DNA from: an uncultured Actinomycetes bacterium
Lineage (GTDB): Bacteria; Actinomycetota; Thermoleophilia; RBG-16-64-13
Length of the DNA: 64,000 bases
NCBI GenBank assembly: GCA_963714175.1
Contig: CAVQNN010000003.1
Coordinates: forward strand, 520,201 to 584,200
Reading direction: 5' to 3'
How positions within the stretch are numbered: the stretch's first letter is position 1; each line of letters opens with the position of its first letter. The translations under genes and the position numbers were made by a program. Positions 1 to 64,000 of this stretch are shown one piece after another. Under the pieces are notes generated by a model. The model ran no database searches. It saw only the letters and a program-made list of their open reading frames with translations, and was not told the DNA's origin.

Positions 1-2
1 CG

Positions 3-74
3 TTGATCATCGCGGTCAACCTGATAGTGGACATCTCGTACGGCTGGTTCGACCCGAGGATTCGATATGAGTGA
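3..74 (+). CDS. ABC transporter permease (DppB/OppB-like), C-terminal fragment; gene continues upstream of window
   Basis: Frame-3 translation LIIAVNLIVDISYGWFDPRIRYE* matches the conserved C-terminus of DppB-type permeases. Its stop overlaps the ATG of the next permease gene (ATGA coupling). Confidence 0.6.
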   Translation: MIIAVNLIVDISYGWFDPRIRYE

Positions 75-973
75 GGTCTCGAGCATGCAGGAACCCGAAG
101 TCGTCGTTCCGCCGCGGACCAGCGAGTGGAAACGCTTCCGTAGGATCTTCTTCCAGCGCAAGCTCGTGATGTTCGGACTGATCGTAGTGGTGCTGTTGGT
201 GCTCGTCGCCATCTTCGCGCCTCTCCTCGCGCCATACGACCCCTACGAAGACAGTCCGGGGACCTTGGCCGGGAGGCTGCAGGGCGCGAGCTCTGAGCAT
301 TGGCTGGGGACCGACGAGTCTGGGCCGCGACTCTCTCAGCCGCATCATCTACGGGACGAGGACGGCGCTGTACGTCGGCTTCGCCACGGTCGCGGTCTCG
401 GCGGTCGTCGGCATGATTCTGGGGCTGCTCGCCGGCTTCCTGGGGGGAGTGGTCAACGGGGTGATCATGCGGGTCATGGACGCCCTGATGGGCTTCCCCA
501 TGCTCGTCTTGGCCCTGCTTCTGGCCGCGGTGCTGGGAGGAGGCCTGCAGAACGTCGTCATTGCCCTGTCCATAGCAACTCTGCCTGGCTACGTGCGGCT
601 GATGTGCGCCGAGACCATGAGCGTCAAGGAGAACGAGTACATCATGGCGCAGAAGGCCATAGGTGCAAAGAGCCTGCGCACCATGGTCAGGCACGTCCTG
701 CCGAATGCTTTCCAGCCGAGTCTGGTGCTGATCACCACGATGCTCGGCAACGTGATCCTCGCCGAGGCCGGCCTGAGCTTCATCGGCATAGGTATCCAAC
801 CCCCCGGGGCGGCGTGGGGCAGCATGGCCGCCGGTGGATATCGGAGCCTCGCGACTCACCCCGAACTCTCGATCGCCCCGTCGGTGGCCATCATGATCGT
901 GGTGTTCGCCTTCAACATGGTGGGTGACGGACTACGAGACGCGCTGGACCCAAGGCTAAGGGGTACGCTTTGA
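67..973 (+). CDS. Oligopeptide/dipeptide ABC transporter permease (DppC/OppC-like); apparent +1 frameshift near nt 319
   Basis: N-terminal part (frame 1) is MFGLIVVVLLVLVAIFAPLLAPYDPYE...HWLGTDE. C-terminal part (frame 2) is LGRDSLSRIIYGTRTALYVGF...AFNMVGDGLRDALDPRL, the DppC hallmark. The two frames join at the conserved LGTDELGRD motif with one extra T. Confidence 0.8.
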
Positions 974-1999
974 TCGCGAACGATCCGACATGCGATACGC
1001 GCCCGGCGGGCGAACTGCTGCGGGTGAACGACCTCAAGACCGAGTTCAAGGTCGAGGGGGGCATAGTGCACGCGGTGAACGGGGTCTCTTACACGGTCAA
1101 CGAGCGGGAGATCGTAGGGATAGTGGGCGAGAGCGGCTGCGGCAAGTCGGTTTCCCAGCTCTCCGTCATCCAACTCGTGAGGCGACCCGGCCGTGTGGTG
1201 GGGGGAGAGGTGTGGTTCGAAGGTGAGAACCTCCTCAACTACAAGCCGACGGGCCCGGAGATGCGCGCTATCCGTGGCGCGAAGATCGGCATGATCTTCC
1301 AGGAGCCCATGACCTCGCTGAATCCCGTTCTGACCATAGGCCGCCAGATCACCGAGATCGCTCGAACTGCACCTAGGCATGAACAGGAAAGAGTCGCGCA
1401 ACCGGGCCGCCGAGCTACTGGACCTGGTGGGCATCCCCAGCGCCGAGAGTCGCCTGGACGACTACCCGCACCAGTTCAGCGGCGGGATGAGACAGCGGGT
1501 GATGATCGCCATAGGTGTGGCCTGTCATCCCAAGATGGTCATCGCCGACGAACCCACCACCGCACTGGATTGCACCACTCAAGCCCAACTGCTCGAACTC
1601 ATGCTGTCGACGATCGAGGGGTGTCGCGGCTCGCTGGTGCTCGTGACACACAACCTCGGCGTGGTGGCTCGCTACGCTCAGCGCATCTACATCATGTACG
1701 CGGGCAAGATCGTCGAGCAAGGTCTCTGCCGCGACATCTTCTACCATCCAAGACATCCATACACCGTCGGCCTGCTGAAGAGCGTCCCTCGCTTGGACGA
1801 AGTCCAAGGCCGTCGTCTGGTCCCCATCGAGGGCACTCCGCCCAACCTCATCGACATGCCGGACACCTGCGCCTTCCTGCCTCGCTGCCCTGAGAGGGGC
1901 GAGCGCTGCCGCCTCGAACCCTGGCCGGAGCTGGAGCCGGTCGACGGCGAGGGACACATGGCGCGATGCTACATGTGCGGGGGGAGGGCCGGAGAATGA
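970..1999 (+). CDS. Peptide ABC transporter ATP-binding protein (DppD/OppD-like); apparent +1 frameshift near nt 1357
   Basis: Walker A GESGCGKS, signature FSGGMRQRVMIA, and C-terminal oligopeptide-transporter domain (HPYTVGLLKSVP). Frames join at ITE|SLELHLGMNRKE with one extra A. TTG start overlaps the upstream stop. Confidence 0.8.
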
Positions 2000-3022
2000 C
2001 GACCATCGCCGACGCCACAGAGACTCCTGAGGTCACGAGCACGAACGACATGATTCTCGAGGTCGACCAACTCAAGATGCACTTCCCCATCACCCGAGGT
2101 CTGCTCAAGCGCAAGGTGGGCGAGATCAAGGCCGTCGACGGGGTGTCGTTCAAGATGAGGAGGGGCGAGGCCCTCGGGCTCGTCGGCGAGAGCGGCTGCG
2201 GCAAGACCACTGTGGGCCGGTGCGTCAGCCGGCTCTATGAGCCGACGGCGGGCCGCATCCTGTTCAACCAGCAGGACATAACCGCTATGCCGGAGAAGGA
2301 GTTCAGGCCGCTTCGGCGTCACATCTCCGTCATCTTCCAGGACCCCTACGGCTCGTTGGATCCCCGGCAGTCGGCCGGGGGCATCGTGGGCGAGCCGCTC
2401 AAGATCCAGAAGATGGTCGAGAGCAAGGCAGGACTACGATCAGAAGGTGGAGAGTCTCTTCGCCAAGGTCGGTCTGGACCCGGACCTGATGTCTCGCTAC
2501 CCCCACGAGTTCAGCGGCGGGCAGCGACAGCGCATAGGGATCGCCCGAGCCCTGGCCGGAGATCCCAGTCTGATCATCTGCGACGAGCCGGTCTCGGCGC
2601 TGGATGTGTCCATCCAGGCGCAGATCATCAACCTTCTCATGGATCTGAGAGAGGGATTCGCCGGGCTCAGCTACATCTTCATCGCGCACGATCTCTCGGT
2701 GGTCAAGCACTTCAGCGACCGGATCGCGGTGATGTATCTGGGGCGGATCGTGGAGATCACGACGCCCGCGGAGCTCTACGGCAATCCCATCCACCCCTAT
2801 ACGCGGGCCCTGTTGTCGGCGGTCTGTGTGCCCGATCCGGATATCGAGGCGACCCGCGAGAGGATCATTTTGGAGGGCGAGGTGCCGAGCCCTGTCAACC
2901 CGCCTTCGGGCTGCACCTTTCACGAGAGATGCCCGAACGCCACGCCGGCATGCCGCACGACGGTGCCTCAACTGAGAGAAGTAGGCCAGGATCACGAGGT
3001 CTCTTGCCTCGGAGTCGAGTGA
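1996..3022 (+). CDS. Peptide ABC transporter ATP-binding protein (DppF/OppF-like); apparent +1 frameshift at nt 2431
   Basis: Walker [10 protein letters not shown] and signature [15 protein letters not shown]. ORFs 1966-3033 and 2447-3022 join at ESKA|[15 protein letters not shown] with one extra G. RBS GGAGGG lies upstream of ATG 1996. Confidence 0.8.
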
Positions 3023-3049
3023 CGCGGACTTGAAGGAGACGGCGCAGAC

Positions 3050-3472
3050 ATGACCGACGCCAACACCTATAAAGACAACATCGTGACCAGCTACCTGGCC
3101 GACCAGAGCAAGTTCAGCGGCACTACCCTCTCGCCGGTTGCGTACATAGACTCCAGGTTCGTCCCCGGAGCGTTCTACGCGGAGAGTGTCTGGTTTCGCG
3201 AAGCCTCCGAAGGGTCTCCGCCGGAGCACAGCCACGACGATTTCGACGAGCTTCTGATGTTCTTCGGGTCTGACCCCGAGCGGCCGCACGATCTGTGCGG
3301 TGAGGTGGAGTTGTGGGTCGGGGGAGAGAAGCACCTACTGACCGAGAGCGCGATGGTCTTCGTGCCCAAGGGCGTGAAGCACTGTCCGATGATCTTCCGG
3401 CGGGTCGATAGGCCCATTCTTCACCTGTCGACGGCACCGTCGCAGAACTACAGCAGGGATGGCATCGGCTGA
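3050..3472 (+). CDS. Small cupin-domain protein, uncharacterised paralog family (copy C1)
   Basis: 140 aa. Cupin motif 1 PEHSHDDFDELLMFFG and motif 2 VFVPKGVKHCPMIF. RBS AAGGAGA. Paralogous to 3502-3961, 7407-8432 (two domains), 8448-8933 and 17434-17850. Confidence 0.7.
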   Translation: MTDANTYKDNIVTSYLADQSKFSGTTLSPVAYIDSRFVPGAFYAESVWFREASEGSPPEHSHDDFDELLMFFGSDPERPHDLCGEVELWVGGEKHLLTESAMVFVPKGVKHCPMIFRRVDRPILHLSTAPSQNYSRDGIG

Positions 3473-3501
3473 GCATTTCCGAACAGGAGGGAGAAGAAGT
3501 C

Positions 3502-3961
3502 TTGCACAAGCTGGAGAACTCACCGTACAAGAAGTACTTCAAGGTCGGTGACGAGATCAAGATCCCGTCTCATCCGCACGAGCACGAGGTGCCGTACCCG
3601 GCGATCTTACCTCGTTGGCACGGACGTGCCGGCGACTTCTGGCTTCAGGATCGCGACGTTCGCCATCACCGAGCCATTTGAGATGGTCCCGCACACTCAC
3701 ACCCACGACTTCGACCAGTACCTCTCCTTCTACGGCGGTGCGCCCGACATGTTGGATCTCGGCGGCGAAGTGGAATTCACACTCGGAGAGGAAGGGGGAG
3801 AGCTGGAGACCTACGTCTTCACGAAGCCCTTCATGGTTCACGTACCGCCGGGCGTGTTCCACTGCCCGCTGCGCTACACCAAGGTCTACGACCCCGCGAA
3901 GCCGATGATCCACCAGGATCTCGTTTTCACGGGTGAGTACATCCGGAAACCGGCCAGCTGA
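3502..3961 (+). CDS. Small cupin-domain protein, same paralog family (copy C2); apparent +1 frameshift near nt 3597
   Basis: RBS AGGAGGGA then TTG 3502. N-terminal LHKLENSPYKKYFKVGDEIKIPSHPHEHEVPYPAI is in frame 1. The remainder, YLVGTDVPATSGFRIATFAITEPFEMVPHTHTHDFDQYLSFYGG...VHVPPGVFHCPLRY, is in frame 2 (ORF 3548-3961). The N-terminus aligns to paralog 8448-8933 (KYDQYVHHPPH). Confidence 0.6.
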
Positions 3962-4101: not shown

Positions 4102-5773
4102 GGGTAGTGAAGTGAATCGAAGAAGAGCAATATGGAGCATCGGCGTTCTCCTACTGGTGGCCATCGTGATGATGGTCATGGTAGGGTGCGGTGAGGACGA
4201 TACGACCACGACTACGGCCGCTCCGTCCACCGACACCACCGCTGCCGCCGTCAACCGACACAACGGTGGCGCCCGAGACAACGACCACGATGTCGGCCGA
4301 TACGCCCGTCGCCGGCGGCGTCCTGCGTCTGATCATCAACGCAGGTCCGCAGAGCGTCGGCTGGTGGGCGACCATGGGCCCGACCGACGAAGGCGCGATC
4401 TTCCCCGGTGTGGAGAGGACTCATGAAGTTCGCCCCCGGGCGGCACACTGGTTCCCTGCCTTGCTGAGACCGTGACCGAGGATCCCGATGCCCTCACCAT
4501 CACCTTCAAGCTTCACGAGGGCGTCATGTTCCATGACGGCACCGAGCTGACCGCTGACGTGGCCAAGTGGAACTACGATATCGGCATGGCGACGGCAAGC
4601 TCCAGTTCGCCGACTCCATCAAGGAGTTCGAGATCGTCGACAAGTACAACTATCGTGCTACACCTGAACTACTGGCACAACCAGCTGCTGCAGGCCATCG
4701 GCTGGGTCCCCATGTTCTCCCAGGCCGCCTACGAGGCGAACGGTGGAGCGAACGGTGGAGCTGAGTGGTGCGCGGAGCATCTCGTCGGTACCGGACCGTT
4801 CACGCTCGACGAGTTCAACCGCGACCAGTCCCTCAAGTGGGTCAAGAACCCCAACTACTGGGGCGGAGAGGTCTATCTCGACGGTATCGAAGTGAGCATC
4901 ATCCCCGACAACGCGACGGCGGCGGCCATGATGCAGGCTGGCCAGGCCGACATCTGGCAGAGCGCCGACGCGCAGGGCCAGTCCGAGATGGAAGCTGCCG
5001 GCTTCACTCTGCAGTCAGGGCTGGGCTGGATTCCAGTGGCACCTGATGCCCAACACCGTCGACCCCGCCTCCCCGATGGCCGACCAGAAGGTGCGCGAAG
5101 CGGTGGAGTACGCTCTGGACAAGCCGGCTATCGCCGAGGCTATCGGCTATGGCCGTGCTGACCCCCATCTACTGCAGTCGCCCCCCGGGAGAATGGGGTG
5201 CGGACGCGATCATGGTCAAGCGTGAGTACGATCCGGAGAAGGCCAAGGCCCTCCTGGCCGAGGCCGGCTACGCTGATGGCTGCCCCATCGACATCCTTGC
5301 CGTCGCGGAGACAGGCGGTCGCAGCACCGGCGCCGAGGCGGTCAAGGGCTATCTGGATGCCGCCGGCTTTGTCACCAACATCGACATCGCTGATGCCGGC
5401 CGGTTCTACGGCTCGGTGTTCGGCACCGGCTGGAAAGACCTGGCCCTTATGTTCAGCGGCAACGACGTGACCTATCTCATGTCGTGCGCTGCCTGGTGGA
5501 GCCCGACACCCAAGACCAACCTCACCGAGCTTCGCGCGTCCCGCCGAGTTCTGGCGCACTCTTCGAGCCGGCCCTGATGGCCCGTACTCGAAGCGAGCAG
5601 ATAGCGAAGACCGCGGACTATCGTTCGCCATGATGAACGAGAAGGCCCTGATGATCCCGCTGTATCATCAGCCTGCCACCATCGTCATCCAAGACTACGT
5701 CCACTGCGAATACCCGATTGAAGCGGGCTTCGTGGGCTGGTCCTGGGAGAAGACCTGGATGGGCGAGCACTAG
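4102..5773 (+). pseudogene. ABC transporter substrate-binding lipoprotein, family 5 (DppA/OppA-like), disrupted by at least six frameshifts
   Basis: Signal/lipobox LLLVAIVMMVMVGCGEDD then a Thr-rich linker. Family-5 SBP pieces spread over three frames: GGVLRLIINAGPQSVGWW, TITFKLHEGVMFHDGTELTADVAKWNYD, WVKNPNYWGGEVYLDGIEVSIIPDN, AVEYALDKPAIAEAIGYGRADP, KALMIPLYHQPATIVIQDYVH, ending at stop 5771-5773. Confidence 0.7.
4738..4761 (+). repeat. 12-nt tandem duplication (aacggtggagcg/aacggtggagct) inside the SBP pseudogene, encoding ANGGANGG
   Basis: Direct reading of the sequence; the duplication is in frame. Confidence 0.6.
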
Positions 5774-5816
5774 TAACCAATAGGTATCGACCTGCAGCCG
5801 GCAAACAGGCTGCAGC

Positions 5817-5850
5817 GACTCGGCCCGCCCCCAGACTACGGTCTGGGGGC
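5817..5850. terminator. Perfect 15-bp-stem hairpin between convergent genes (candidate bidirectional terminator)
   Basis: GGCCCGCCCCCAGAC-tacg-GTCTGGGGGCGGGCC followed by GAGCTTTGTG. It lies between the SBP pseudogene end (+) and the NTF2 gene end (-). Confidence 0.5.
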
Positions 5851-5998
5851 GGGCCGAGCTTTGTGCGGAGCATGACTGCTCCCACGGGCTCGGTCGCTGT
5901 GCTCGGGCGGGTGGGCGCGCGGGACGTGCCTTATTCGTGCACAGGGGGATCGCATTGCCGCTGGCACCTGGCGCAGTGCCAGGCCGGCGCTGCCTGTT

Positions 5999-6715
5999 CT
6001 AGCCTTTCCGGGGCGCCAAACCGGGGGGCGGCGTGACTATAGGCTTGCCGGTCACCGGATGGACGCAGTGGAACGGAAGCACCTCATGCTCGGGCCATCT
6101 CAATGGCGTGTAGTCCGTCAGCTCATCCGGACCGTAGGGATCCTCCGGGAAGGTGGTGGTTTGCAGCGCCACAAACTCAGGCGGTGTGAAGGCCCATCCG
6201 TTCTCGAAGGTGCAGATCCATACCGGCCGGTAGTTGAGCATCTTGATCTTCCACACACCGTCGCGCTTGACGTAGGCATTCTCATAGAGGGCGCCTTCCC
6301 ACCACTGGCGGGCGATCGAGGTGGGGTTGGGATTCCTTTCGTAGTGAGTGCCGGCCTGCATCATGCAGCGGAAACGCGCCGAGGCGGTCAGTCGATCAGC
6401 GGACACGTCGACCACGTCCTGCATCTGGGGGTGATCGAGCAGGAAGCCGAAGACCGGTCCGTTCTTGCCGTCGGTGAAGCGGTTACGGAAGCCATCGCAG
6501 TACATGCGGCGGGCACCGGCAAGGCCTCGGAAGATTCCGCCAAAGAAGTGAATCTCGCAATCCTCGTCGTAGCAGTCGACCGCCTCGTCGTACATGCACT
6601 TGTCGATGAAGTAGCCATAGAGATGATGCAGACGGCGGATGGCATGCACGTCTTCCAGCACTCCGAGTCTGTGCTCCAGCCGTTCGACCCGTTTCTGCAG
6701 CTCATCATCACTCAT
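5999..6715 (-). CDS. NTF2-like (SnoaL-type) superfamily protein with C-terminal Pro/aromatic-rich extension (paralog A)
   Basis: 238 aa. N-terminus MSDDELQKRVERLEHRLGVLEDVHAIRRLHHLYGYFID is typical of SnoaL-like/NTF2 proteins. RBS GGGAGGG. The C-terminal ~90 aa (ENGWAFTPPEF...PLRWPEHEV) is shared with paralog B. Confidence 0.75.
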   Translation of the reverse strand: MSDDELQKRVERLEHRLGVLEDVHAIRRLHHLYGYFIDKCMYDEAVDCYDEDCEIHFFGGIFRGLAGARRMYCDGFRNRFTDGKNGPVFGFLLDHPQMQDVVDVSADRLTASARFRCMMQAGTHYERNPNPTSIARQWWEGALYENAYVKRDGVWKIKMLNYRPVWICTFENGWAFTPPEFVALQTTTFPEDPYGPDELTDYTPLRWPEHEVLPFHCVHPVTGKPIVTPPPGLAPRKG

Positions 6716-6744
6716 GATCTTGACCCTCCCGTATCCAGAACGGC

Positions 6745-7395
6745 CTAGTCGGCGTACGGCTCCGGCGGCGGTGGTTGCATCACATTTATCCGGTAGCGGC
6801 TGTACGGCATGTAGTAGGTGGTCGGCCTGTCCGGCACGTTTTCCGGAGAACCAGCGATACTGGCCGCCACCGGCTCCTCCGCCCAGCCTTTCTCATACGG
6901 GCACATGAACGTCTGGCGGTAGGCGAACTTGAGGAATCTCCACTGCCCGTCCTCTTTGACATACTCCATGTCGTATTTCCCCAGGCAGAGGAATTGCTTC
7001 AAGGTACCTTCCACCATGAGGGAACAGTAGCCGTGCGAGTGCCAGAGTCCCCTAGCTCTCGTTCGGTCGCGGTTGATTTCGATGATGGGGTTGACAGTCA
7101 TGTGAATCGCGAGGTGTCCCGCGCCGATCATCTTGTCGTCGAAGACTGTGTTCCAGAAGCGGGTGACGCTCTCGATGCCTTCGTAGACCCCGCTGTCCTC
7201 CATCTCCAGGTTGACCCCTGGCGTCTTCTGGGCAAACAGAGCTGGTACCTCGGATCTTCTTCCGATGTGGTAGAGGTGCGAGTACAGCGATTGCAGCTTC
7301 CAGAGCTCGAGGTAGTCCTTGGCGAGCGCTCCCTCGGCCACCTGCTCTTTCAGGCTTCTCAGTTCGGCTTCCAGCTGCTCCAGAGTCATGGTCAT
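6745..7395 (-). CDS. NTF2-like (SnoaL-type) superfamily protein (paralog B)
   Basis: 216 aa, MTMTLEQLEAELRSLKEQVAEG...YLELWKLQSLYSHLYHIG. Same architecture as 5999-6715, including the EKGWAEEP...YMPYSRYRINV tail. Confidence 0.75.
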   Translation of the reverse strand: MTMTLEQLEAELRSLKEQVAEGALAKDYLELWKLQSLYSHLYHIGRRSEVPALFAQKTPGVNLEMEDSGVYEGIESVTRFWNTVFDDKMIGAGHLAIHMTVNPIIEINRDRTRARGLWHSHGYCSLMVEGTLKQFLCLGKYDMEYVKEDGQWRFLKFAYRQTFMCPYEKGWAEEPVAASIAGSPENVPDRPTTYYMPYSRYRINVMQPPPPEPYAD

Positions 7396-7406
7396 TTCTC
7401 GTGCCC

Positions 7407-8432
7407 CTACCGACCGCCGGGATATAGCTTGATGCCCTCACCCATGGGCGACGACATCATGAAGAACAACTGCTTGCTGATGTTCCTGACGATCATCGGG
7501 CCTTGCGACACGTTCGGCGGAACGTATGCCCAGAAGGGCTTGTTGATAACGTGCTTCTCGCCGCCGATCCAGAGTTCCACCTCCGCGCGGAGGTCGGTGA
7601 TGTCGTCGTAGTTCAACGACGTGATCGCGATGGAGGTGCCGTAGGGCACGGTGTGGGTGTCCATGATCAGTTGGCCGGCTTTGGATGTGTCGCCGGGAAG
7701 AAGCCATCTCGTGTCGCAGCCGAACTCGGCGTCGGGGATCACGGTCTGGTCGATGTAGGCCATCGGACGACAGTAGGTGGGATCGAGGGGACGCATGAAG
7801 TCGGGCATCTTGATGTCGGCCGGCGTCCCGTAGACCATGTATCTCGCGTACTTCGATTCGCCGGGCTTCACTTCCCTGGCGATCGGGGGGGCTTTCTCCT
7901 CTGCCTCGGCCTTCTTGGTCTCGTCGTCCTTCTCTCTCGTGTAGACGCCGCCGGGGCCGGAGACCCAGTGCAGCGTCGGCCGGGAGTAGATCTGGCTGCG
8001 CACGCCTCTGTTGAACACAGGCATGTGGGGCAGGTTGGCGGGGATGTACGCCACCCAACTCGACTCCAGAGGGATTATCTCGTCGTCCATCTGCATGGCC
8101 ATGGGGTCTGTGTCTGCGAAATCTTCGGGATTTGTCCCCCACCAAGAGAGCAGCTCGGGAAAGCCATGAACATGGGGGAACATGCCTGGAGTCGCGTAGC
8201 CGATCTTCGCCAACTCCTCCCACGTCACCTGATTGGGGAAGGTGGAGGGCCATATCCAGGTGGTCTCCCCGTAGTAGGCACCGGGGATGACCTCCTCGTC
8301 GATCCAGTGCAGGTGCTCCATGCTGACGCGCTTGCCTTGGGCGGCCAGAAGGTCGCGCTGCTCCGGGGTCGGGCCAGGCAGTAGATGCCGCTTCTCGAGC
8401 GTGGTGCAGATGTACTTGTCGAATTCGCCCAT
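7407..8432 (-). CDS. Tandem-double cupin protein of the same uncharacterised paralog family (copies C3+C4 fused)
   Basis: 341 aa with two cupin units. Unit 1 is PHVHGFPELLSWWGTNPEDF...AYIPANLPHMPVFN. Unit 2 is DTHTVPYGTS...LRAEVELWIGGEKHVINKPFWAYVPPNVSQGPMIV. RBS AGGAGC. Confidence 0.7.
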   Translation of the reverse strand: MGEFDKYICTTLEKRHLLPGPTPEQRDLLAAQGKRVSMEHLHWIDEEVIPGAYYGETTWIWPSTFPNQVTWEELAKIGYATPGMFPHVHGFPELLSWWGTNPEDFADTDPMAMQMDDEIIPLESSWVAYIPANLPHMPVFNRGVRSQIYSRPTLHWVSGPGGVYTREKDDETKKAEAEEKAPPIAREVKPGESKYARYMVYGTPADIKMPDFMRPLDPTYCRPMAYIDQTVIPDAEFGCDTRWLLPGDTSKAGQLIMDTHTVPYGTSIAITSLNYDDITDLRAEVELWIGGEKHVINKPFWAYVPPNVSQGPMIVRNISKQLFFMMSSPMGEGIKLYPGGR

Positions 8433-8447
8433 GGTCGGTGCGTGCTC

Positions 8448-8933
8448 CTATCCCTTGTAGGGGATGATCTCGAAGTTCATGATCTTGTGCGGGTCGAAGC
8501 CCTTGTCTTCCTCGAAATAGGCTTCCCGCGTACCTTCCGCTCCGGCCATCATTATCTCCACCTGGATGATGGGGCTGTCGACGCGAGTGACCTCCAGCGG
8601 ACCGTGGGGCAGCTCCGGCGGCAGATAGACGAGCGTCGGGCGGGTGAAGACGTACTTCTCCAACTCCGGCCCCATGTGCAGCACCACTTCCGCGCCGAAC
8701 TCATCCGGGTCGTCAGGGTTGCCGCCATACCACGCCAGCACTTCGTGGAAGTTGTGGGTGTGGCATGGGTTGTCTCCCTTGAAGGGCTTGCGGACGAACT
8801 GATGACCCATCATGAAGGGGAAGCCGATCTGCTGGTGCGAGATCATCAGACCGTCGAACACAGCGGTGCCGTCCGCCTTCATCGTCAGGAGCATGTGGGG
8901 CGGATGATGCACATACTGGTCGTACTTGCTCAC
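8448..8933 (-). CDS. Small cupin-domain protein, same paralog family (copy C5)
   Basis: GTG start preceded by AAGAGG (MSKYDQYVHHPPH...). Motifs CHTHNFHEVLAWYGGNPDDP and VYLPPELPHGPLEV. The longer ORF (to 9047) overlaps the upstream SDR and is judged spurious. Confidence 0.65.
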   Translation of the reverse strand: MSKYDQYVHHPPHMLLTMKADGTAVFDGLMISHQQIGFPFMMGHQFVRKPFKGDNPCHTHNFHEVLAWYGGNPDDPDEFGAEVVLHMGPELEKYVFTRPTLVYLPPELPHGPLEVTRVDSPIIQVEIMMAGAEGTREAYFEEDKGFDPHKIMNFEIIPYKG

Positions 8934-8988
8934 GTCTACCTCTTTCGGAGTGCTGCCTGGTTGCCTGCCGCGGGTTCGCGGAGGGCAA

Positions 8989-9786
8989 CTACAATACCGA
9001 ACCGCCGGACACATGGAAGACCTGCCCGGTGACGTAACTGGTGACATCGGACGCTAGGAAGAGGGTGGCGTTGGCGATATCCCTCGCCGTGCCCATCCTG
9101 CCCAGCGGGAATGCCCCGAGAAACGCCTTGTTCCTCTCCAGTGCTTCTTCCGGCGACAACTCGGGTTCTCCCTCGTGGAGGATGGCCCCGAACTTGGTGG
9201 GCGCCGGACCGGGAGCGACGCAGTTGACGCGGAGGCCGGCCGGTCCCTCAACCTTGGCAAGTTGCTTCGTGAACAGATCGAGCGCGTACTTGGACATGGC
9301 GTAGGTGCCGACGCCCATGGCGTACTGATGCGTGCTACCAGAGCCGATGTTCACGATGACCCCGTACTTCTGCGCGCGCATCAAGGGGACGACGGCCTGA
9401 GTGACGTTCATGGTGCCGATGACGTTCAGCTTGAACTGCTTCTCCCAGGCGACAGGGTCCTGATCCTCGATCGGGATCCCATCCTTGTGGAGGATGGCAC
9501 CGGCGACGTTGCAGAGGATGTCGATCCGTCCGTACTCGTCAATCACCTTGCGTACCATCGCCTTGACGGCGGCGTTGTCGGTGATATCGGCCTGCACGGC
9601 GAAGCTCTTGCAGCCCAGCTTCTTCACTGCTTCAGCCGTCTTCTCGGTATCCTCCAGGATGATGTCGGTGACAGCCACCGCATCAATCCCTTCCTGGGCC
9701 AAGAGCAAAGCTATCTCTTTGCCGAACCCTACTTGGCTGCCGGCCCCGGTGACGAGTGCCGTCTTTCCTGCAAAGGCGAGATCCAT
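8989..9786 (-). CDS. Short-chain dehydrogenase/reductase (SDR) family oxidoreductase
   Basis: TGAGSQVGFG Rossmann motif, NVAG, and YAMSK catalytic Tyr-x3-Lys. 265 aa. Confidence 0.85.
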   Translation of the reverse strand: MDLAFAGKTALVTGAGSQVGFGKEIALLLAQEGIDAVAVTDIILEDTEKTAEAVKKLGCKSFAVQADITDNAAVKAMVRKVIDEYGRIDILCNVAGAILHKDGIPIEDQDPVAWEKQFKLNVIGTMNVTQAVVPLMRAQKYGVIVNIGSGSTHQYAMGVGTYAMSKYALDLFTKQLAKVEGPAGLRVNCVAPGPAPTKFGAILHEGEPELSPEEALERNKAFLGAFPLGRMGTARDIANATLFLASDVTSYVTGQVFHVSGGSVL

Positions 9787-9811
9787 GGTTACCTTCCAAT
9801 CAAAGTAGTAG

Positions 9812-11659
9812 CTATGCGCAGATCACTTCGGCTATGTCATCCAGGCCCAATTCAAGGAGCTTGGTCTTGCTCGGCATGCCGGTTGCTTTGTCCCAATCCA
9901 TCAGATCCATGTACTCGTCGTAGATCTCTGCGTGCGTGAAGGTGATGCCGGCACGCGGACCCTGGGTCTTGGCGGGGATGCCCCGTAGCCGTTCAGGATA
10001 CTTGAAGGGTGTGACTATGCCTTCTCGCTGGTTGAACGCTTGCCGTACGTTGGTGATGCGCTCACCGGTCTTGAGTATTTCTTCCGTGGTCAGGTCGTCC
10101 CAGCCCGTGATCGCCTTCATGGCCTCGACCAACTGATCGACGTGCGGATATGACCCGATGACGAATTGGCACAGGCCCAACGCGCTGGCGGCGTGCAAGT
10201 AGTTCGTGCTGGTCTTGTGATAGAGCCCGCGACCGGCGCGAGCGGCGCGATCGACCTCATCGATGAGACCCGGTGGGTGCTGCCCGCCCCCTTGATTGTG
10301 GCGGCCAGGTGTGGGGTCCGCTCCGTACCCGGTGGCGAAGCCCCAGCTTCCCCTTGGGTCGTGGGCCCCGATCTCCTGCCCTCCGACGTGCATCGCGTAC
10401 TTTTCGGAGCCCTTGCCGACCCTCTCCGCGGCCAGCTTCACCCCGTCAGCAAGGATGTCGCCGAACCCCTCGCGCTTGCCGATCATCTCGGTCATGGCAA
10501 CGATGGCCTTGTGATTGCCCCAGGTCATCTCCAGTCCGCCGGTATCTTCCTTGCCGATGATTCCATTCTCGTAGCATTCGATCGCGAAGGCGACACAACC
10601 TCCGGCGGATATGGTGTCCACACCCAGTCGGTTGCAGATGTCGGAGGCGACGATGATCGAATCGAGGTTGCCGTTCGCGCAGTTGCTGCCGAACATCGCC
10701 AGCGTCTCGTACTCGGGCTTGTGGGCGCCCTCCTCGAACTCGTATTCCCCGGTCCCCGCCTTCATGATGCCGCCGCACGCAATGGGGCAGCGCCAGCAAC
10801 CATACCGGCGCTTCTGCTTGGCAAACACAGGTGGGCCACCGCAGTCCTCGTAGTTCGGCACATCTATCGCGGCGACACCGCCCCAATTCTTGGACGGCGC
10901 ATCGTCGCTGTTGCAGCACATGCCATAGATGCCGGGCGTGCCGAACTCGTGCAGCCCTTCCTTGTGGCCACCGAGGGCGTCGACGTGCCTTTTGTGCATC
11001 GCCTTGAGCGCTGCCGGTTCGGAGGCCCCGGGAGGCTGCAGGGTGCCCTGGACGGCAACGGCCTTGAGCCTCTTCGAGCCCATGACCGCGCCCAGTCCCG
11101 AGCGCGCGGCAGCGCGGCCCTTGTTGCACATCACCGAAGAAATGAGGGCCAGCTTCTCTCCGCCGGGGCCGATGCAGGCCACTTGAAGGTCCTTGCCATG
11201 CTCCTGCCTGAGGATGTCCTGGGTCTCGAAGGTATCCTTGCCCCAGACGCCGGCAGCGTCTCTCAGTTCGGCCTTGCCGTTGTTGATATGCAGGTACACC
11301 GGCGTGTCCGATATACCGGTGAAGAACACCGCATCGTAGCCGGCGAACTTCAGGTAGGGCCCGAACTCCCCGCCCGAGTTGGCGTCTCCCCAGCCGCCCG
11401 TCAGCGGCGACTTGCCGACGACGACATACCGCGAGCCCCCGACACCCTCGGTGCCGGTCAGGATCCCGGTGACGAAGCCGAGTGTGGCCTCAGGGCCGAG
11501 CGGATCGACGCCCGGCTTCTGACGGTCGAAGAGGATCCTCGCGCCCAGGCCGTAGCCCCCGAGGTACTCCCGAGCCGTCTTCTCATCCAGGGGCTCTTCT
11601 CTCATCTCTTTTGTGGATAGATCCACCCAGAGGATCTTTCCCATCACACCAAAACCCAC
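9812..11659 (-). CDS. aor: Tungsten-containing aldehyde:ferredoxin oxidoreductase (AOR family)
   Basis: 615 aa. N-terminus MGKILWVDLSTKE is typical of AOR. Conserved GLGARILFD and Cys-rich CWRCPIACGG [4Fe-4S] region. Full-length AOR domain architecture. Confidence 0.9.
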   Translation of the reverse strand: MGFGVMGKILWVDLSTKEMREEPLDEKTAREYLGGYGLGARILFDRQKPGVDPLGPEATLGFVTGILTGTEGVGGSRYVVVGKSPLTGGWGDANSGGEFGPYLKFAGYDAVFFTGISDTPVYLHINNGKAELRDAAGVWGKDTFETQDILRQEHGKDLQVACIGPGGEKLALISSVMCNKGRAAARSGLGAVMGSKRLKAVAVQGTLQPPGASEPAALKAMHKRHVDALGGHKEGLHEFGTPGIYGMCCNSDDAPSKNWGGVAAIDVPNYEDCGGPPVFAKQKRRYGCWRCPIACGGIMKAGTGEYEFEEGAHKPEYETLAMFGSNCANGNLDSIIVASDICNRLGVDTISAGGCVAFAIECYENGIIGKEDTGGLEMTWGNHKAIVAMTEMIGKREGFGDILADGVKLAAERVGKGSEKYAMHVGGQEIGAHDPRGSWGFATGYGADPTPGRHNQGGGQHPPGLIDEVDRAARAGRGLYHKTSTNYLHAASALGLCQFVIGSYPHVDQLVEAMKAITGWDDLTTEEILKTGERITNVRQAFNQREGIVTPFKYPERLRGIPAKTQGPRAGITFTHAEIYDEYMDLMDWDKATGMPSKTKLLELGLDDIAEVICA

Positions 11660-54046: not shown

Positions 54047-56172
54047 GTGTGCGGAGTGGGCGCCACGAGTAGTACGAAGTATCGGAGGCTGCTTGCGCCT
54101 GGGTACATCGGATCGGTGAAGATCAAGACCCGGTTGATCAAGACAGGGTCCAACCCCGGCTTCTATCCCTACGATGGCGGGTTCGTCCAGCCCCTGATCG
54201 TCGACTACTACGAGGCCCTGGCCGCGGGTGGCGTAGGTCTCGTGACGGTGGGTGGCGGGGAGATCGACTATCCCATCGGCACGGTCCCGGACCACGGTTA
54301 CCGCCAGGATGAGGAGATGTACATCCCCAGCCTGAAGACACTGGCCGACGCGATCCACAGATACGACTGCCCGGCGTTCATCCAACTCTTCCACATGGGG
54401 CCCATGCACCCCAAGGCGGCTACCGGCCTTCAACATATAGCGGCTTCGTCGCTGTCGCTGGAAGAGCTCCCGCGAAAGGACTTCACGCCTCTTGCCAAGG
54501 AGATGACCCTCGACGACATCGTGAGAGTCGAGGGGAGGTTCGTCAACGCCGCGGTGATAGCGCAGAAGGCCGGATTCGACGGTATCGAGCTGAACTTCGC
54601 CTGCAATCATCTGGGCAACTCCTTCCTGTCGCGCGCTTGGAACAAGCGCCACGATGACTATGGCCGCGACAGTCTCGCGAATCGGGGACGGTTCCTGGTT
54701 GATACCATCAAGGGGATCAAAGGGGCCACGGGCAAGGACTTCCCCATATCCGTCATGATCAACAGCCTCGAAGCGGGTCTGGAGGACGGGATCACGCTCG
54801 AAGAGTGCAAGGCGTTCGCGGTGATGGCCGAGAAGGCTGGAGCCGATGCCATCCATCCGAGAGTCGAGTTCTACACGAATCCTCGGGATCTCATGAAGCG
54901 GGACAGCACGCACTTCCCGGACATGGTCCCCTTCCCCGCTAGGCCCAAGAAGGTGGATAGGGAGATCGACCTCAGCCATCACGGAGAGGCCGCCTGGGTG
55001 CCCGCCGCCGCTGAGGTCAAGAAAGTGGTCTCGATCCCCGTCGTCGCCGTCGGAAGGCTGGGCCCGGACCTTGGCGAGAAGATCCTGAGAGAGGGGAAAG
55101 CCGACTTCATCAGTCTCAACCGGCGTCTCATGGCCGACCATGACCTCCCCAGGAAGATCGCCGAGGGCAGGCCGGAGGACATCGCGCCGTGTACCGGCTG
55201 CATGACCTGCTTCGCTCGCGTGGAGCGGGGAGAGTCTCCCCAGTGCCGCACCAACGCAGCTCTCGGCAGGGAGAAGGAATACGAGATCAAACCGGCCCGA
55301 GAAGCAGAAGAAGGTCATGGTGGTGGGCGGCGGCCCGGCGGCCCTGGAGGCAGCCCGGGTGGCGGCTCTCAGAGGACACGAGGTCTCCCTCTACTCTGCA
55401 ATGAAGAGGTTGGGTGGCTCCATGCTGGTCGCAGCGGTCGTCAAGGGCGTCGAGAAAGAGGACCTTCCCGGTTTCGCCCGTTACTACGAGACGCAGATGA
55501 GGAAGCTGGGCGTGGAAGTCCATCGGGGGACGAAAGTGACTCCCGAGTTGGTGAAGAAAGCCGGTCCCGACGTCCTTCTTGTCGCCTCCGGCGCGAGGCA
55601 TGACATCCCGGACATCCCGGGGATCGACAGCAGAAAGGTCATGACCGGCGAAGACCTCCATCACAGCCTCAAGTTCTTTCTCAGGTTCGCCGGGCCGAAG
55701 TTGCTGAGATGGGGGACGAGGTTCGCGCTTCCGCTCATGCTCGGCAAGGATGTAGTCGTGATCGGTGGCAGGCTGCACGGGTGCCAGACGGCGGAGTTCC
55801 TGGTGAAGAGAGGCCGCAACGTGACGATAGTCGACACCTGCCCCGAGGAGCAGATCGGAGAAGGCCTCCTCGAGACCTTCATGAAGCCCTGGTTGCTCCA
55901 ATGGCTGGACGACAGGGGGGTGGAGATCCTGCCGGGAGTGAAGTACGAGGAGGTCAACAAGGAGGGCCTCGTCGTCACCACGAAGGACGGCGACGAAGCG
56001 GACCCTGAAGGCAGACAAGATCGTGACGGCGATGCCCATGCTGGCCGACTTCGAGTTCCTCGCTCAGTTCAAGGACGCTGCCGAAGAGGTCTACGCGATC
56101 GGCGATACTCGCGAACCGGGATACATCGTCGACGCCGTTGCCGACGGGGCAAAGATAGCCCGGGAGATCTAG
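54047..56172 (+). CDS. Old-yellow-enzyme-type NADH:flavin oxidoreductase / enoate (2,4-dienoyl-CoA-like) reductase with C-terminal FAD/NAD(P) domain; two frameshifts (~55300, ~56000)
   Basis: OYE TIM-barrel N-terminus, the Cys cluster CTGCMTCF, then VMVVGGGPAALEAARVAAL...VVVIGGRLHGCQTAEFL in a second frame and ...IVTAMPMLADFEFL in a third. Confidence 0.75.
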
Positions 56173-56790: not shown

Positions 56791-58324
56791 CTGATAGAGC
56801 CGTTCCCGCTCGCCCGGCTCCATGCTGGGGGTGAAGACGCGGTCGGTTCCCACCAGCCCCGCCACCTCGGCCGCCGTCCAGAACCCCACCGCCAGCCCTG
56901 CCAATGCCGCCGCGCCCAGGGCCGTGGTCTCCTGTAGCCTGGGCCGGACCACCGGGACGCCCAGCAGGTCGGCCTGGAGTTGCAGCAGGAAGTCGTCCCC
57001 GGCGGCGCCGCCGTCGGCCCGCAGACCGGCGATGTCGATCCCCGAGGTCTGACGCATGGCGTCCAGCACCGCGCGGGTCTGGAAGCAGATGGCCTCCTCG
57101 GTGGCCCTGGCCAGGTGCTCGGGTTTGGTGCCGCGGGTGAGGCCGATCAGGAGCCCGCGGGCGTAGGGGTCCCAGTATGGAGTCCCCAGCCCTGTCAGGG
57201 CAGGTACGAAGTAGACGCCGTCGTTGTCGGGAGCTTGTGCCGCAAGCGGGCCGATGTCGGCGGAGCTCTCGATAATCCCCAGAGTGTCGCGGATCCACTG
57301 GACCGCGCCGCCGCCCATGAAGACCGAGCCCTCCAGGGCATAGGTGACGGCGCCCCCGGCCGGTGCCCCCGGCCTCTGGGCCCAGCACCCAACCCACGGT
57401 CGACAGCAGTCCGCGTTCCGGCTTGGCGGGTCGCGAGCCCACGTTCATCAGCAAGAAGCAGCCAGTTCCGTAGGTGTTCTTGCAGTCGCCCGGCCGCAGC
57501 GCACCCTGCCCGAACAGAGCCGCCTGCTGGTCGCCGGCCACGCCGGTGATGGGGACGGCCGCTCCAAGCACCGTCGGCTCCGTCGACGCGATCAGCCCCG
57601 ACGAAGGGCAGAGTCGCGGCAGGATCGAACGGGGGACGCCGAAGACGGCCAGCAACTCGTCCGCCCAGTCGAGGCTTCGCAGATCGAGCAGCATGGTGCG
57701 CGAGGCGTTGCTGTAGTCGGTCACGTGCTGACGGCCGCCGGTGAGCCGCCAGATGAGGAAGCTGTCGATGGTGCCCACACGGAGGCGGCCCTTGGCGAGC
57801 AGGTCGGCGGCGCCTTCTCTGTTGGCGAGGAGCCATTCGATCTTGGTGGCGCTGAAGTAGGGGTCGAGCCTGAGTCCCGTGCGTGCCTCGACGGTGGGTC
57901 CGAACCCGGCCCGCTCGAGCTCCTCGCAGCGGCCGGCCGTCCGCCGGCACTGCCAGACGATGGCGTTGCCCAGGGAGGCGCCGGTCTCCGCATCCCACAA
58001 GAGGACCGTCTCGCGCTGGTTGGCGACGCCGATGGCGGCGAGGTCCTCGGCTCTCATCCCTGCCTGCTCCAGCGCGAGCCTGGCGCAGCGGTGTTGGGTC
58101 TCCCAGATGTCCTCGGGGTCCTGCTCCACCCATCCGGGTTCAGGATAGTGCTGGGGGAAGGCCTCCTGGGCGGCCCCAAGGATGGTTCCGTCGTGCCCGA
58201 AGACGATCGCTCGGGAACTCGTGGTCCCCTGGTCGAGCGCCAGTACCGCTGTGGCGGTACCCGTCGCCGCCGTGCCGGTACCCGTCGCCGCCGTGCCTGT
58301 CACTGCTGTGGGTCTGTTCGCCAT
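56746..58324 (-). CDS. glpK: Glycerol kinase; frameshift near nt 57340; N-terminal TG/TA-rich extension encoded by a 21-bp tandem repeat
   Basis: LALDQGTTSSRAIVF and GCFLLMNVG motifs. The C-terminal half (ORF 56746-57318) is in another frame. N-terminus MANRPTAVTGTAATGTGTAATGTATAV. Confidence 0.8.
58262..58310 (-). repeat. 21-bp tandem repeat (cccgtcgccgccgtgccggta x2, plus partial) inside the glpK 5' end
   Basis: Direct reading of the sequence. Confidence 0.6.
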
Positions 58325-61024: not shown

Positions 61025-63050
61025 ATGGCGATGGATGACAAGACCAACGCTCAGCGAAAGAACGCCAGGGGTAGCCAGGCCGGCGGGCCGGGCCGGCCGC
61101 AAGGGGGGGCGCAAGGCGGCAACGACGATCGTGGGCGAAACGGCGGTCGGCGCGCCTGGCATCTCATAGCCTATGTCGTTGTGGCTCTGGTCGCCCTGTA
61201 TCTCTTCAACTACCTGCTGGGCTCCATGACCTCCCCGTCTCATGTACTCAGTTACAGCGAGTTCAAGACCAAGGTGGCCGAGAAGCAGATACTGACGGCG
61301 GTGATAGGGACAGCGCAGATCACCGGCACGATGGCCAGCACCGACCCTGAGTCCACAGAGCCGAGCGACTTCAAGACCAACTACCATCCGGACTCCGATC
61401 CTCGAGCTGGTTTCGGAGCTACAGGCGGCCGGGGTCGAGGTTGGTTTCAGCGACCCTTCCAGCCAAATCGGGGGCATCCTCATCAATCTGCTGCCTTTCG
61501 TGGTGATAGGGGTGTTGTACTACTACATCTACCGCCGCATGGCGCGCGGGGCCGGAGGCGGGATGGGCGGCATCTTCGGAGTGGGCAAGAGCAAGGCCAC
61601 CCAGGTGACCGCGGAGCAGGTGGGCGTCACCTACAAAGACGTGGGAGGCGCCGACGAGGCCATAGCCGAACTGCGCGAGATCATCCAGTTCCTGAAGACC
61701 CCCGAGCAGTTCGCCAAGCTCGGCGGGCACATCCCCAAGGGCGTGCTTCTTGGTGGGCCCTCCCGGCACCGGCAAGACCCTGCTGGCCAAGGCTACGGCC
61801 GGCGAGGCCGGGGTCTCCTTCTTCGAAAGCAGTGGTTCGGAGTTCGTGGAGATGTTCGTGGGAGTGGGCGCCGCCCGGGTGCGCGACCTCTTCGAGCAGG
61901 CCCGCAAAGCGGCGCCGGCGATCGTCTTCATCGACGAGATCGACGCCATAGGTCAGACCAGGGGAATGGGACTCGGGCCCAGTGGCGGCAATGACGAGCG
62001 TGAGCAGACGCTCAATCAACTCCTTGCCGAGATCGATGGGTTCAGTACCGACGTGGACCGGCCGGTCATCATCATGGCGGCCACCAACCGTCCCGAGGTG
62101 CTCGACAAAGCTCTGCTGCGCGCCGGCCGTTTCGACCGGCAGGTGGAGGTCGGCAACCCGGATCTCATCGGCCGCGTGCAGATACTCAAGATCCACAGCA
62201 AGGGCATCAAGCTCACCCACGATTTTGACCTGGAGCGGGCTGCCCGCATGACACCCGGCTTCAGCGGCGCCGACTTGGCGAACGCCATGAACGAGGCGGC
62301 GCTGCTCGCCGCCCGTCGCAAGGCCAGCGCGGTGGGCATCAAGGACTTCGAGGCGGCGATGGAGCGGGTGATCGCCGGGCTGGAGAAGAAGAGCCGGGTG
62401 ATGAACGAGCGCGAGCGCTCGACCGTTGCCTATCACGAGTCGGGTCACGCGCTGGTGGCAGGACTGGTCCCGCACGCCGACCCCGTGGCCAAGATCAGCA
62501 TCATCCCTCGGGCCCGCGGGGCCCTCGGATACACGCTGCAGATGCCCAGCGAAGACCGCTACATCCTCACGCGCGACGAACTGACCGACCGGGTGGCCGT
62601 CATGATGGGAGGACGGGCGGCGGAGACCATCGTGCTCGACACCATCAGCACCGGAGCCAGCGACGACATCCAGAAGGCCACCGAACTGGTCCGCCGCATG
62701 ATCACGGAGTTCGGCATGAGCGACAAGCTGGGGTCGGTGCGCTACGCGGGACCACAACTGCAGTACCTGGGCGGTGTGATGCAGGACAACAGCCAGATCA
62801 GCCCCCACACGCAGGAGACTGATCGACGCCGAGGTACAGAAGACCGTCACCGAGCAGTACGAGCGGGCCCAGGCGCTGCTCCGCGATCACCGGGTCGCGC
62901 TGGAGACCCTGGCCAAGGAGTTGCTGGAGCACGAGACTGTCGACGGGAAGGCCGTACAGGCCGCGCTTGAGGCCGACGCGGCCGGGGCCGCGAGTGCTCC
63001 GGGCGGAGGAGTCACCGCGGGCGGAGTCGCCGCGGCCGGGGCTACTCCCT
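61025..63050 (+). CDS. ftsH: ATP-dependent zinc metalloprotease FtsH; three frameshifts (~61400, ~61755, ~62815)
   Basis: TM/periplasmic N-terminus. AAA region Walker [14 protein letters not shown] (in a shifted frame) and SRH. Protease HESGHALVA zinc motif. The C-terminal tail lies in a third frame. Confidence 0.8.
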
Positions 63051-63824
63051 GACCAAGGCCGCGATGCCTCCCTGATAGTACGGTTCGGAGAATAGGACGG
63101 TCTTCGACCGCTCCTCGGTGATGGTTATGCAGGCGGCGATCATATCTACCTCACCCGCGGCCACCTTGGGCATCATCTCGTCGAAGCCCATGCTGACGAC
63201 CGTGAGAGTCTTCCCCAGCCGCCGCGCCACGTAGGTGGCGAGCTCGATGTCGAAGCCGACCACTGCCTGGTCTCCTGCTGTGAAGGAGAACGGTTCGGTG
63301 ATAGGCGCCGTGCCCACAGTGAGGACTCCGTTGCTGCCATCCAGAGGGATATCGGGCATGGCGGCCGGGCTACCCTTCGCAGGCAACCATCGGTCGAGCA
63401 TCTGTGCGTAGGTGCCATCGTCCTTGAGTTCCTGGACGACAGCATCTATCGCGGTCTTCAGCTCCTGGTTGTCCAGCGCCACCGCGATTCCATACTGGTC
63501 GACCGTGATCATGTCGTCGAGCACGACGAGGCCCTCATTCTTCGCGGCAAGGTTCCTGAGGATGGGTTCATCGTACGCGGCGGCGTCGGCCTTTCCGTCC
63601 TTGACCGCTAGACAGCAATCCAGGGCCGAATCATGGTAGGTGAACGTCGCGTCCTCGAACCTGGACAAGACCAGCTGATCGGCGATCGTCCCGCTCGGCA
63701 CGGCGAATACCTTTCCCTCCAGCTGATCCAGGCTGGTGATCGGCTGGTCCGACCCGCAGCCGCCCATCGTCGATGCTAGGATCACCACGGCCGCCGCCGC
63801 TAGGGCTAACCATCTTCTGCCCAC
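63042..63824 (-). CDS. Polar amino-acid ABC transporter substrate-binding lipoprotein (family 3)
   Basis: Lipobox LASTMGGCGS with SBP_bac_3-like body. 260 aa. Confidence 0.8.
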   Translation of the reverse strand: MGRRWLALAAAAVVILASTMGGCGSDQPITSLDQLEGKVFAVPSGTIADQLVLSRFEDATFTYHDSALDCCLAVKDGKADAAAYDEPILRNLAAKNEGLVVLDDMITVDQYGIAVALDNQELKTAIDAVVQELKDDGTYAQMLDRWLPAKGSPAAMPDIPLDGSNGVLTVGTAPITEPFSFTAGDQAVVGFDIELATYVARRLGKTLTVVSMGFDEMMPKVAAGEVDMIAACITITEERSKTVLFSEPYYQGGIAALVRE

Positions 63825-64000
63825 TTAGACCTCCCTCGCCATCGCCCGACTCCTCGTCTTGCATCAGACCTAGACTACCCATCTTCCCTCCCTTTCTCCC
63901 ATGTCGATGCGGCGTCGGGGCCTGTCGAAAGGTCTTCGTCCCTCTTTGGGAGGAAGGTCTCCATCGCGACCGAACATAACGAAAGGACAGCGCTGCGGCG

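Follow-up and report, generated by a model that had tools for sequence, protein, structure and literature searches.

Frameshifts across a 64-kb stretch of an uncultured actinomycete assembly are very probably artefacts of its consensus

Introduction

Does the bacterium behind contig CAVQNN010000003.1 really carry some nineteen frameshifted genes within 64 kb, the essential ftsH among them, or was the damage written into its assembled sequence? The stretch analysed here, positions 520,201 to 584,200 of this contig (assembly GCA_963714175.1, an uncultured Actinomycetes bacterium), will be called the window; it is 64,000 nucleotides long, with a G+C content of 63% and an ordinary composition. The source organism is a GC-rich anaerobe, and the closest named homolog comes from a Thermoleophilia metagenome-assembled genome (MAG). 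An earlier note, made from the letters of the window, had described genes split by extra bases on both sides of an intact block, and had set error in the assembled consensus against real decay of duplicated and accessory genes. Below we catalogue the events, compare the affected genes with their orthologs, and examine the sequence context and the spacing of the insertions. The frameshifts are very probably an artefact of the assembled consensus and not mutations of the organism.

Frame-breaking events in the window

Since spurious long open reading frames (ORFs) are common at this G+C content, we relied on a codon model instead of ORF length. A codon log-likelihood model trained on the intact genes at 6–25 kb was used to map coding fragments in six frames, a Viterbi decoder in which 1- or 2-base skips were allowed located the frame switches inside genes, and a frameshift-tolerant protein-to-DNA aligner, which we wrote, was run against intact orthologs for precise placement of the events. 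Continuity of the fragments across frames was checked with family profiles (NCBIfam, Pfam and PRK). The detailed reference set consisted of six intact mop orthologs, eight intact orthologs (~750 amino acids, aa) of the GltD-like/CCG gene, and the dpp operon with its solute-binding protein (SBP) gene from a homologous metagenome contig, L161.

Aligner, decoder and profiles together show some 62 places, spread over about 19 genes, at which the reading frame is broken. Of these events 57 are single-base insertions, 2 are single-base deletions, and 3 can be read either way, as a 1-nt deletion or a 2-nt insertion (one each in porG, UroD2 and the nitroreductase-like gene). Insertions thus make up 97% of the 57 and 2 (binomial p = 6e-15). 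The gap between successive fragments is mostly exactly one base, as at 318/320, 1359/1361, 2427/2429, 3606/3608, 25969/25971, 31581/31583 and 62817/62819. The two resolved deletions lie at 4592 in the SBP gene, where a codon is cut to 'AC', and at 25656 in the GltD-like/CCG gene, where CAG is cut to 'CG'. Split genes are present in the sequence, as the earlier note had it, but they number about 19 and not at least 20, and the statement that every resolvable junction is a single inserted base holds for 57 events and fails at the two deletions. The events in cupin C2, the PALP gene, porB, porG, the nitroreductase-like gene, ligD, the RsbU-like gene, OYE and glpK come from the decoder only. The affected genes are as follows.

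61 to 973, plus strand: dppC-like permease; one +1 insertion at 316-319, NCBIfam positions contiguous over two frames.
949 to 1999, plus strand: dppD-like ATPase; one +1 insertion at 1357-1360, PRK09473 positions 1-112 and 113-312 on two frames, in agreement with the L161 alignment.
1996 to 3022, plus strand: dppF-like ATPase; one +1 insertion at 2430-2432 from the aligner, profile contiguous; corrected protein 341 aa.
3469 to 3961, plus strand: cupin C2; one +1 insertion at 3606-3608, fragments 3469-3606 and 3608-3943 one base apart.
4130 to 5770, plus strand: SBP_bac_5 lipoprotein (the SBP); insertions at 4247, 4420, 4446, 4654, 5019, 5155, 5526, 5552, 5622 and 5629, deletion at 4592.
25640 to 27900, minus strand: GltD-like/FAD/CCG fusion gene ('geneX', 749 codons); 13 single insertions and the deletion at 25656, from alignment with the L149 ortholog at 79% identity.
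27980 to 30806, minus strand: mop copy A (aldehyde oxidoreductase); insertions at 30602, 30454, 30156, 30099, 30024, 29809, 29552, 29311, 28645 and 28013.
30980 to 33819, minus strand: mop copy B; single insertions at 33615, 32826, 32328 and 31582, and a 2-nt insertion at 32463-32467.
36594 to 37800, plus strand: UroD2, the second UroD-like gene; insertions at 37181 and 37296, one either-way event near 36.76-36.85 kb.
40599 to 41572, plus strand: PLP-dependent Thr-dehydratase-like gene (PALP); insertions at 41103 and 41245, Pfam PALP positions 4-149, 152-194 and 198-295 on three frames.
42698 to 43601, minus strand: porB; one insertion at 42917, a decoder switch with a 1-nt gap, TPP_enzyme_C in the first fragment.
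45174 to 45823, minus strand: porG; one event at 45375-45376 that shifts the frame the other way (a 1-nt deletion or a 2-nt insertion), with a 2-nt remnant.
47890 to 48722, minus strand: nitroreductase-like gene; one putative frame change near 48.6 kb, called from fragment phases.
48846 to 50760, minus strand: ligD; one insertion at 49275 (codon map and decoder).
52287 to 53932, plus strand: PAS/PP2C (RsbU-like) gene; insertions near 53.6 kb and at 53851, fragment phases running 0, 1, 2.
54104 to 56169, plus strand: OYE/pyridine-nucleotide-disulphide reductase; insertions at 55298 and 56004, Oxidored_FMN and Pyr_redox_2 on successive frames.
56809 to 58303, minus strand: glpK; one insertion at 57358, FGGY_N and FGGY_C (the latter from profile position 37) in consecutive frames.
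61025 to 63037, plus strand: ftsH; insertions at about 61394-61403, 61749 and 62818, TIGR01241 positions 103-198, 199-551 and 554-597 on three frames.

For the dpp genes the junctions lie within a few bases of those read earlier, while the one in cupin C2 falls at 3606-3608 and not at 3597. Frameshift-aware alignment of dppC with its L161 ortholog (81% identity) gives a single event, and the counterpart of cupin C2 in a related JGI contig is one gene of 152 aa. The SBP, aligned to the L161 SBP at 73% identity, has 8 single insertions, one 2-base event that resolves to two insertions 7 nt apart, and one deletion, and intact SBPs of relatives are 531 and 560 aa long. Its least certain event is the call at 4247, which falls in a low-complexity Thr/Ala/Pro linker. 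Repetitive linkers rich in Thr, Ala and Pro follow the lipobox in the solute-binding lipoproteins at both 13663-14910 and 4130-4300 (TTTTAAPETTTTAAPE...).

The events in mop copy A were placed by DNA alignment with the six intact orthologs of 941-942 codons together with frameshift-aware alignment. The best homolog of UroD2, used as its reference (P0134), is intact and 391 aa long, at 64% identity by BLASTP. The description of many events per gene fits mop A, mop B, the GltD-like/CCG gene and the SBP (10, 5, 14 and 10-11, respectively); UroD2 has 3, and the Thr-dehydratase-like gene, with 2, does not belong in that group. One or two events each were likewise found, as described before, in glpK, ligD, porB, porG and OYE, with exactly one in ligD and one in porG that may be a deletion. 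The three frameshifts reported in ftsH are borne out by the TIGR01241 segments. At 61749 the lesion sits just upstream of Walker A, and dropping a single T or G restores the context of the motif. The C-terminal event of ftsH was misplaced by alignment to references of 50% identity, and NCBIfam coordinates and codon statistics were used instead; a scan of genome contigs with the corrected FtsH returned relatives at ≤54% identity only and was flooded by a conserved peptide pattern.

Orthologs and selection

Are the genes themselves decaying? A scan of metagenome contigs with the corrected mop protein returned 80 loci, many with uninterrupted orthologs of 941-942 codons and up to 91% amino acid identity, and at more than 30 of them an intact ortholog (~750 aa) of the broken GltD-like/CCG gene lies downstream. 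The 40 closest full-length homologs of the corrected DppF protein are all intact and 341 aa long (best identity 89%); the homolog contigs give an intact dpp operon with its SBP (L161), and a syntenic JGI contig has unbroken genes for DppF (341 aa) and the SBP (560 aa). In orthologs from more than 30 independent metagenome contigs a single ORF runs through every event site, the single exception being one site shared with L162, a long-read contig that is itself damaged and is described below. A search for fragments of the same species with a 129-aa query spanning five events gave no match above 86% identity, and neither this search nor the one with DppF turned up an independent assembly of the species that spans a frameshifted gene. 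DppF was also considered as a mosaic of the two closest JGI proteins; this was rejected, since all three are equidistant. As a separate observation, the gene order mop, GltD-like/FAD/CCG fusion and small zinc-ribbon gene is kept in more than 30 metagenome loci (among L081-L160).

Once the extra bases are removed, seven genes comprising about 4,250 codons contain no in-frame stop and no larger deletion, and the corrected lengths of 943, 941, 749, 341, 341 and 530 codons equal those of the homologs. The tandem paralogs mopA and mopB, which share 88% DNA identity, differ in the corrected frame by 60, 39 and 180 substitutions at codon positions 1, 2 and 3, giving dN of 0.055, dS of 0.31 and dN/dS of 0.18. 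The same two genes are hit at three homologous codons, 67, 331 and 496/497 (30602/33615, 29809/32826 and 29311/32328), a coincidence with a probability of ~1e-4 or less. The low dN/dS despite these common lesion sites means that both copies have been under purifying selection throughout their divergence, and the common lesions are therefore not old and real.

These observations bear directly on the view that genuine frameshifts are eliminating accessory or duplicated genes from the organism, such as mop, UroD2 and the dpp genes with their SBP. The highest event densities are indeed found in duplicated or accessory genes (mop A, mop B, the SBP and UroD2), and the three sites common to mopA and mopB are what a broken ancestor would leave. 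We nevertheless consider such decay very improbable. Bacterial mutation is biased towards deletions, a bias which the 57:2 ratio reverses; stops and larger deletions are missing from the ~4,250 codons; the mop copies have kept a dN/dS of 0.18 in spite of their common lesions; the essential ftsH carries three lesions, with glpK, porB, porG and ligD affected as well; and 10-14 frameshifts in genes of otherwise perfect codon usage are unlike decay. The underlying genes are under purifying selection and almost certainly effectively intact, real decay being contradicted by the insertion bias, the missing stops, the dN/dS and the hits in ftsH. The same findings, together with the intact orthologs, support the earlier suggestion of indel error in the assembly or consensus.

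Sequence context of the insertions

For 35 insertions, all single-base deletions within ±10 nt were enumerated and those with the best-scoring local alignment of protein to ortholog were retained; the null was obtained by simulating 4,200 random insertions in these genes after correction, with a second simulation set for the transition tests. Only 11 of the 35 (31%) are compatible with a change in run length, that is, with a homopolymer error, against 50% of the simulated insertions (p = 0.03), so that the sites, which the earlier note had proposed to check for homopolymers, are in fact depleted of run-compatible contexts. At 319 (GAG[T]CTG) and 62818 (GAG[A]CTG) a run error is impossible. Homopolymer chemistry errors are thus excluded as the main cause.

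What distinguishes the sites is of another kind. At 20 of the 35, two adjacent bases differ and either can be removed to give the same protein (a synonymous tie; 40% in the simulations, p = 0.03), at 14 of the 35 the tie is also a transition pair (20%, p = 0.005), and a transition partner stands beside the candidate extra base at 28 of the 35 (60%, p = 0.01). Examples are AAG[A][C]GG for Arg AGG/CGG, present in both mop copies, GT[C][G] for Val, GC[A][G] for Ala, CA[A][G] for Gln, GG[G][C] for Gly, GA[C][T] for Asp, TA[C][T] for Tyr and AA[C][T] for Asn. The 2-base cases resolve into two synonymous doublets each, ACGC-TCTG as Thr ACG/ACC plus Leu TTG/CTG, and GAC[T]ATCGTT[C]GCC as Asp plus Val. 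The excess of synonymous transition doublets suggests that both alleles of a polymorphism have been written into the consensus, which lends some support to collapsed strain variation, one of the causes named earlier.

The events also fall where the mop paralogs diverge more (p = 0.015), and the protein segments they hit are the more variable ones (p = 0.02, with a slight bias of aligner or placement possible). This placement agrees with a connection to natural variability and speaks against cross-mapping of reads between the paralogs; as a source of the mop events such cross-mapping was rejected, since it is not the high-identity stretches that are hit. A further idea, that the inserted base is the allele of the other paralog, was dropped as evidence, because this is also expected under random insertion.

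Could the cell instead read through the extra bases? Widespread programmed +1 frameshifting, a suppressor tRNA that decodes quadruplets, or excision of the base from the mRNA would all leave the proteins intact if one base is skipped, the shifts being +1, and one site is common with a related organism and three are common to paralogs. Yet the sites have no common motif (information peaks at 0.28 bit, below the 0.35 that marks the 95th percentile of random positions), and no k-mer survives correction for ~180 tests, with AGA/TCT (p = 6e-4) and ACT/AGT (p = 1e-3) mildly enriched and no methylation-like motif. The scan of the window found no tRNA and no Rfam element, the orthologs lack the sites, a single gene may contain as many as 14 of them while 17 genes nearby contain none, and two events are -1. 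We regard decoding of this sort as practically negligible. Only slightly less remote is the broader proposition that the extra bases are real, whether as dozens of +1 insertions that are decoded or tolerated or as a recent burst of insertion-only mutagenesis on which selection has not yet acted.

Uneven distribution and the clean block

No intragenic event is found between 5,629 and 25,656, a gap of 20,027 nt. Under a uniform rate of 62 events per 64 kb, a gap of that size has a chance of ~8e-11 and was reached in 0 of 200,000 simulations, and event counts per 2 kb have a variance-to-mean ratio of 4.3. The gap includes the following block.

5999 to 24901, not strand-specific: clean block of 17-18 genes; no intragenic switch, the Viterbi decoder finding just a gene-boundary switch at 9820.

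The absence of frameshifts from these genes (17 in the earlier description) was thus confirmed by the decoder and by gene lengths of 341, 265, 439, 488 and 421 aa, which agree with those of JGI relatives. A synteny break (window 5770-7400) relative to the 14.9-kb contig of JGI 3300075153 coincides with the left edge of the block; a single gene of 240 aa (Cytidylate_kin2) in the relative stands opposite two genes on the minus strand of the window, 5999-6715 and 6745-7395. This JGI sample also contains a protein 100% identical to that encoded at 22127-23392 (421 aa, CCG), the only one of seven intact proteins looked up for which an exact match was on record, while its best DppF is just 89% identical.

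Outside the clean block the density alternates between 0 and ~6 events per kb on a scale of 1-2 kb. There are no events at 34.3-36.6 kb, 3 in UroD2, none at 38.4-40.5 kb, 2 in the PALP gene and none in porA and porD. Long-read coverage cannot vary on such a scale, and strain variation therefore fits these switches better than coverage does. Low coverage, which the earlier note had offered as one possible cause, is accordingly a poor fit.

A second damaged assembly and ordinary read errors

A search with the GltD-like/CCG segment led to L162, a 310-kb ENA contig (ERZ25039495, contig_8340) with Flye-style naming from a related organism of 63% G+C. Its mop has 2 insertions and its GltD-like/CCG ortholog 7 insertions and 3 deletions; the latter insertions resemble those of the window in context, 5 of 9 being synonymous ties and 3 of 9 run-compatible, and most of the positions differ from those in the window. 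The exception is L162:10318, which corresponds to window 27533-27542 and where the same base is added to codon 106 of the GltD-like/CCG gene, giving GA[C][T]CAG within an identical stretch of 40 nt whose flanks are at ~80%. An exact coincidence of this kind would arise by chance with a probability of ~17%, and we treat the codon-106 event as unexplained and not as a sign of inheritance. As an observation on this other public long-read assembly, the damage in L162:1-12300 is patchy in the same way, with a series of very short gene calls at 0.4-4.5 kb.

It is against this background that ordinary long-read sequencing or consensus errors have to be weighed, errors unrelated to polymorphism that survive where coverage is low or polishing has failed, the clean block being the better polished part. 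An insertion-only, patchy pattern is usual in unpolished long-read assemblies, L162 has similar damage, and 15 of the 35 events are not synonymous doublets. On the other side, run-compatible sites are depleted (11/35 vs 0.50), the opposite of chemistry errors in nanopore, PacBio, 454 and Ion Torrent data, synonymous transition doublets are twice as frequent as expected at random, the density flips over distances shorter than long reads, and no k-mer survives multiple-test correction. We consider this explanation unlikely, although it deserves more weight than any in which the frameshifts are real.

Comparison with known systems

The closest parallel is the collapse of allelic variants in a PacBio assembly, which led to INDEL errors and apparent frameshifts (Cosentino et al. 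2021, PMC8445201). There, as here, the load is patchy; ORFs truncated by INDELs lay at or near allelic variants and were intact once the haplotypes had been separated. That case, however, concerns the diploid Trypanosoma brucei, with known haplotypes and read evidence, while for the window co-assembled bacterial strains are deduced from the sequence. The insertion bias and the doublet signature are observations from the window and not from that study.

Frameshifted genes have also been described in bacterial genomes and MAGs assembled from nanopore or PacBio long reads (proovframe preprint, 10.1101/2021.08.23.457338; Sereika et al. 2022, PMC9262707), where, as in the window, genes are split by single-base indels and the proteins match full-length homologs. 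Classical long-read indel errors are tied to homopolymers (PMC9262707). The window differs from these cases, with its 31% of run-compatible sites and 97% of insertions. Nanopore indel errors tend, moreover, to be deletions.

Pseudogene-rich, decaying genomes are known from Mycobacterium leprae and recent host-restricted bacteria, and have in common with the window many frameshift-interrupted genes at uneven density. They are marked by deletions, stops, relaxed selection and the sparing of essential genes, none of which is seen here. Programmed +1 frameshifting, as in prfB or at the many +1 sites of Euplotes, likewise involves one extra base that has to be skipped for the full protein, but its motif and sites are conserved, usually with one site per gene, in contrast to the up to 14 per gene in the window, none of them conserved.

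Neighbouring features

The cupin C2 gene belongs to a set of cupin-like paralogs of unknown function at 3038-3961 and 7407-9047, which lie beside the dpp-like transporter and a TRAP transporter/AOR/SDR cluster; the pairing recurs in the related JGI contig. A segment of about 1.1 kb (41560-42700), lying between the PALP gene and porB, has a negative codon score and stops in all six frames, with no tRNA and no Rfam match; it may not code for protein, or may be a remnant of foreign DNA or a gene damaged beyond recognition. The multidomain LigD, with its one insertion, stands next to an intact Ku (277-279 aa) at 48846-51696 on the minus strand, the two forming a bacterial non-homologous end-joining pair.

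Discussion

How would a consensus come to contain so many extra bases, nearly all of them insertions and so unevenly spread? We propose that the window comes from a long-read MAG into which several closely related strains have been pooled. At a polymorphic site the consensus step would write both alleles in tandem, producing a doublet and with it a +1 insertion; two neighbouring variants would produce +2, and where both alleles were occasionally dropped the result would be -1. Event density would then track the local divergence of the strains, being high in mop, the GltD-like/CCG gene, the SBP and the dpp genes, and the 20-kb block would have no events either because the pooled strains are identical there or because one strain alone carries the region. 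We put the probability of this explanation, taken as a whole, at roughly 0.85. Its specific mechanism, the doubling of alleles, is held with considerably more reserve, as a probable but by no means assured route to the observed pattern.

Several points weigh against this proposal. We know of no assembler or polisher that emits both alleles, and common settings of partial-order alignment (POA) favour a mismatch over two gaps. The evidence from doublets is of modest strength (p 0.005-0.03) and its tests are mutually correlated, every insertion qualifies as a doublet in a formal sense, and the 15 of 35 events that are not synonymous ties remain outside the pattern. The three sites common to mopA and mopB need an added assumption, either shared polymorphism or gene conversion, the test for cross-mapping having been negative. 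The identical event in the window and L162 hints at an effect of context; this codon-106 coincidence could be chance, a context-specific systematic error or a recombined segment. Finally, the mixed-strain origin of the assembly is deduced from its sequence.

The combination of insertions almost to the exclusion of deletions, non-homopolymer sites, synonymous transition doublets and patchiness on the scale of genes constitutes an error signature that can separate collapsed strains from chemistry errors even without reads, and it suggests that the remedy is strain-aware re-polishing rather than added coverage. For the biology of the organism the consequences are plain. The frameshifts are not a biological feature and represent no new biology; mop A and mop B, the GltD-like/CCG gene, the dpp genes with their SBP, UroD2, ftsH, glpK, ligD, porB, porG and the other affected genes should not be annotated as pseudogenes, and metabolic reconstruction from this genome should use the frame-corrected proteins.

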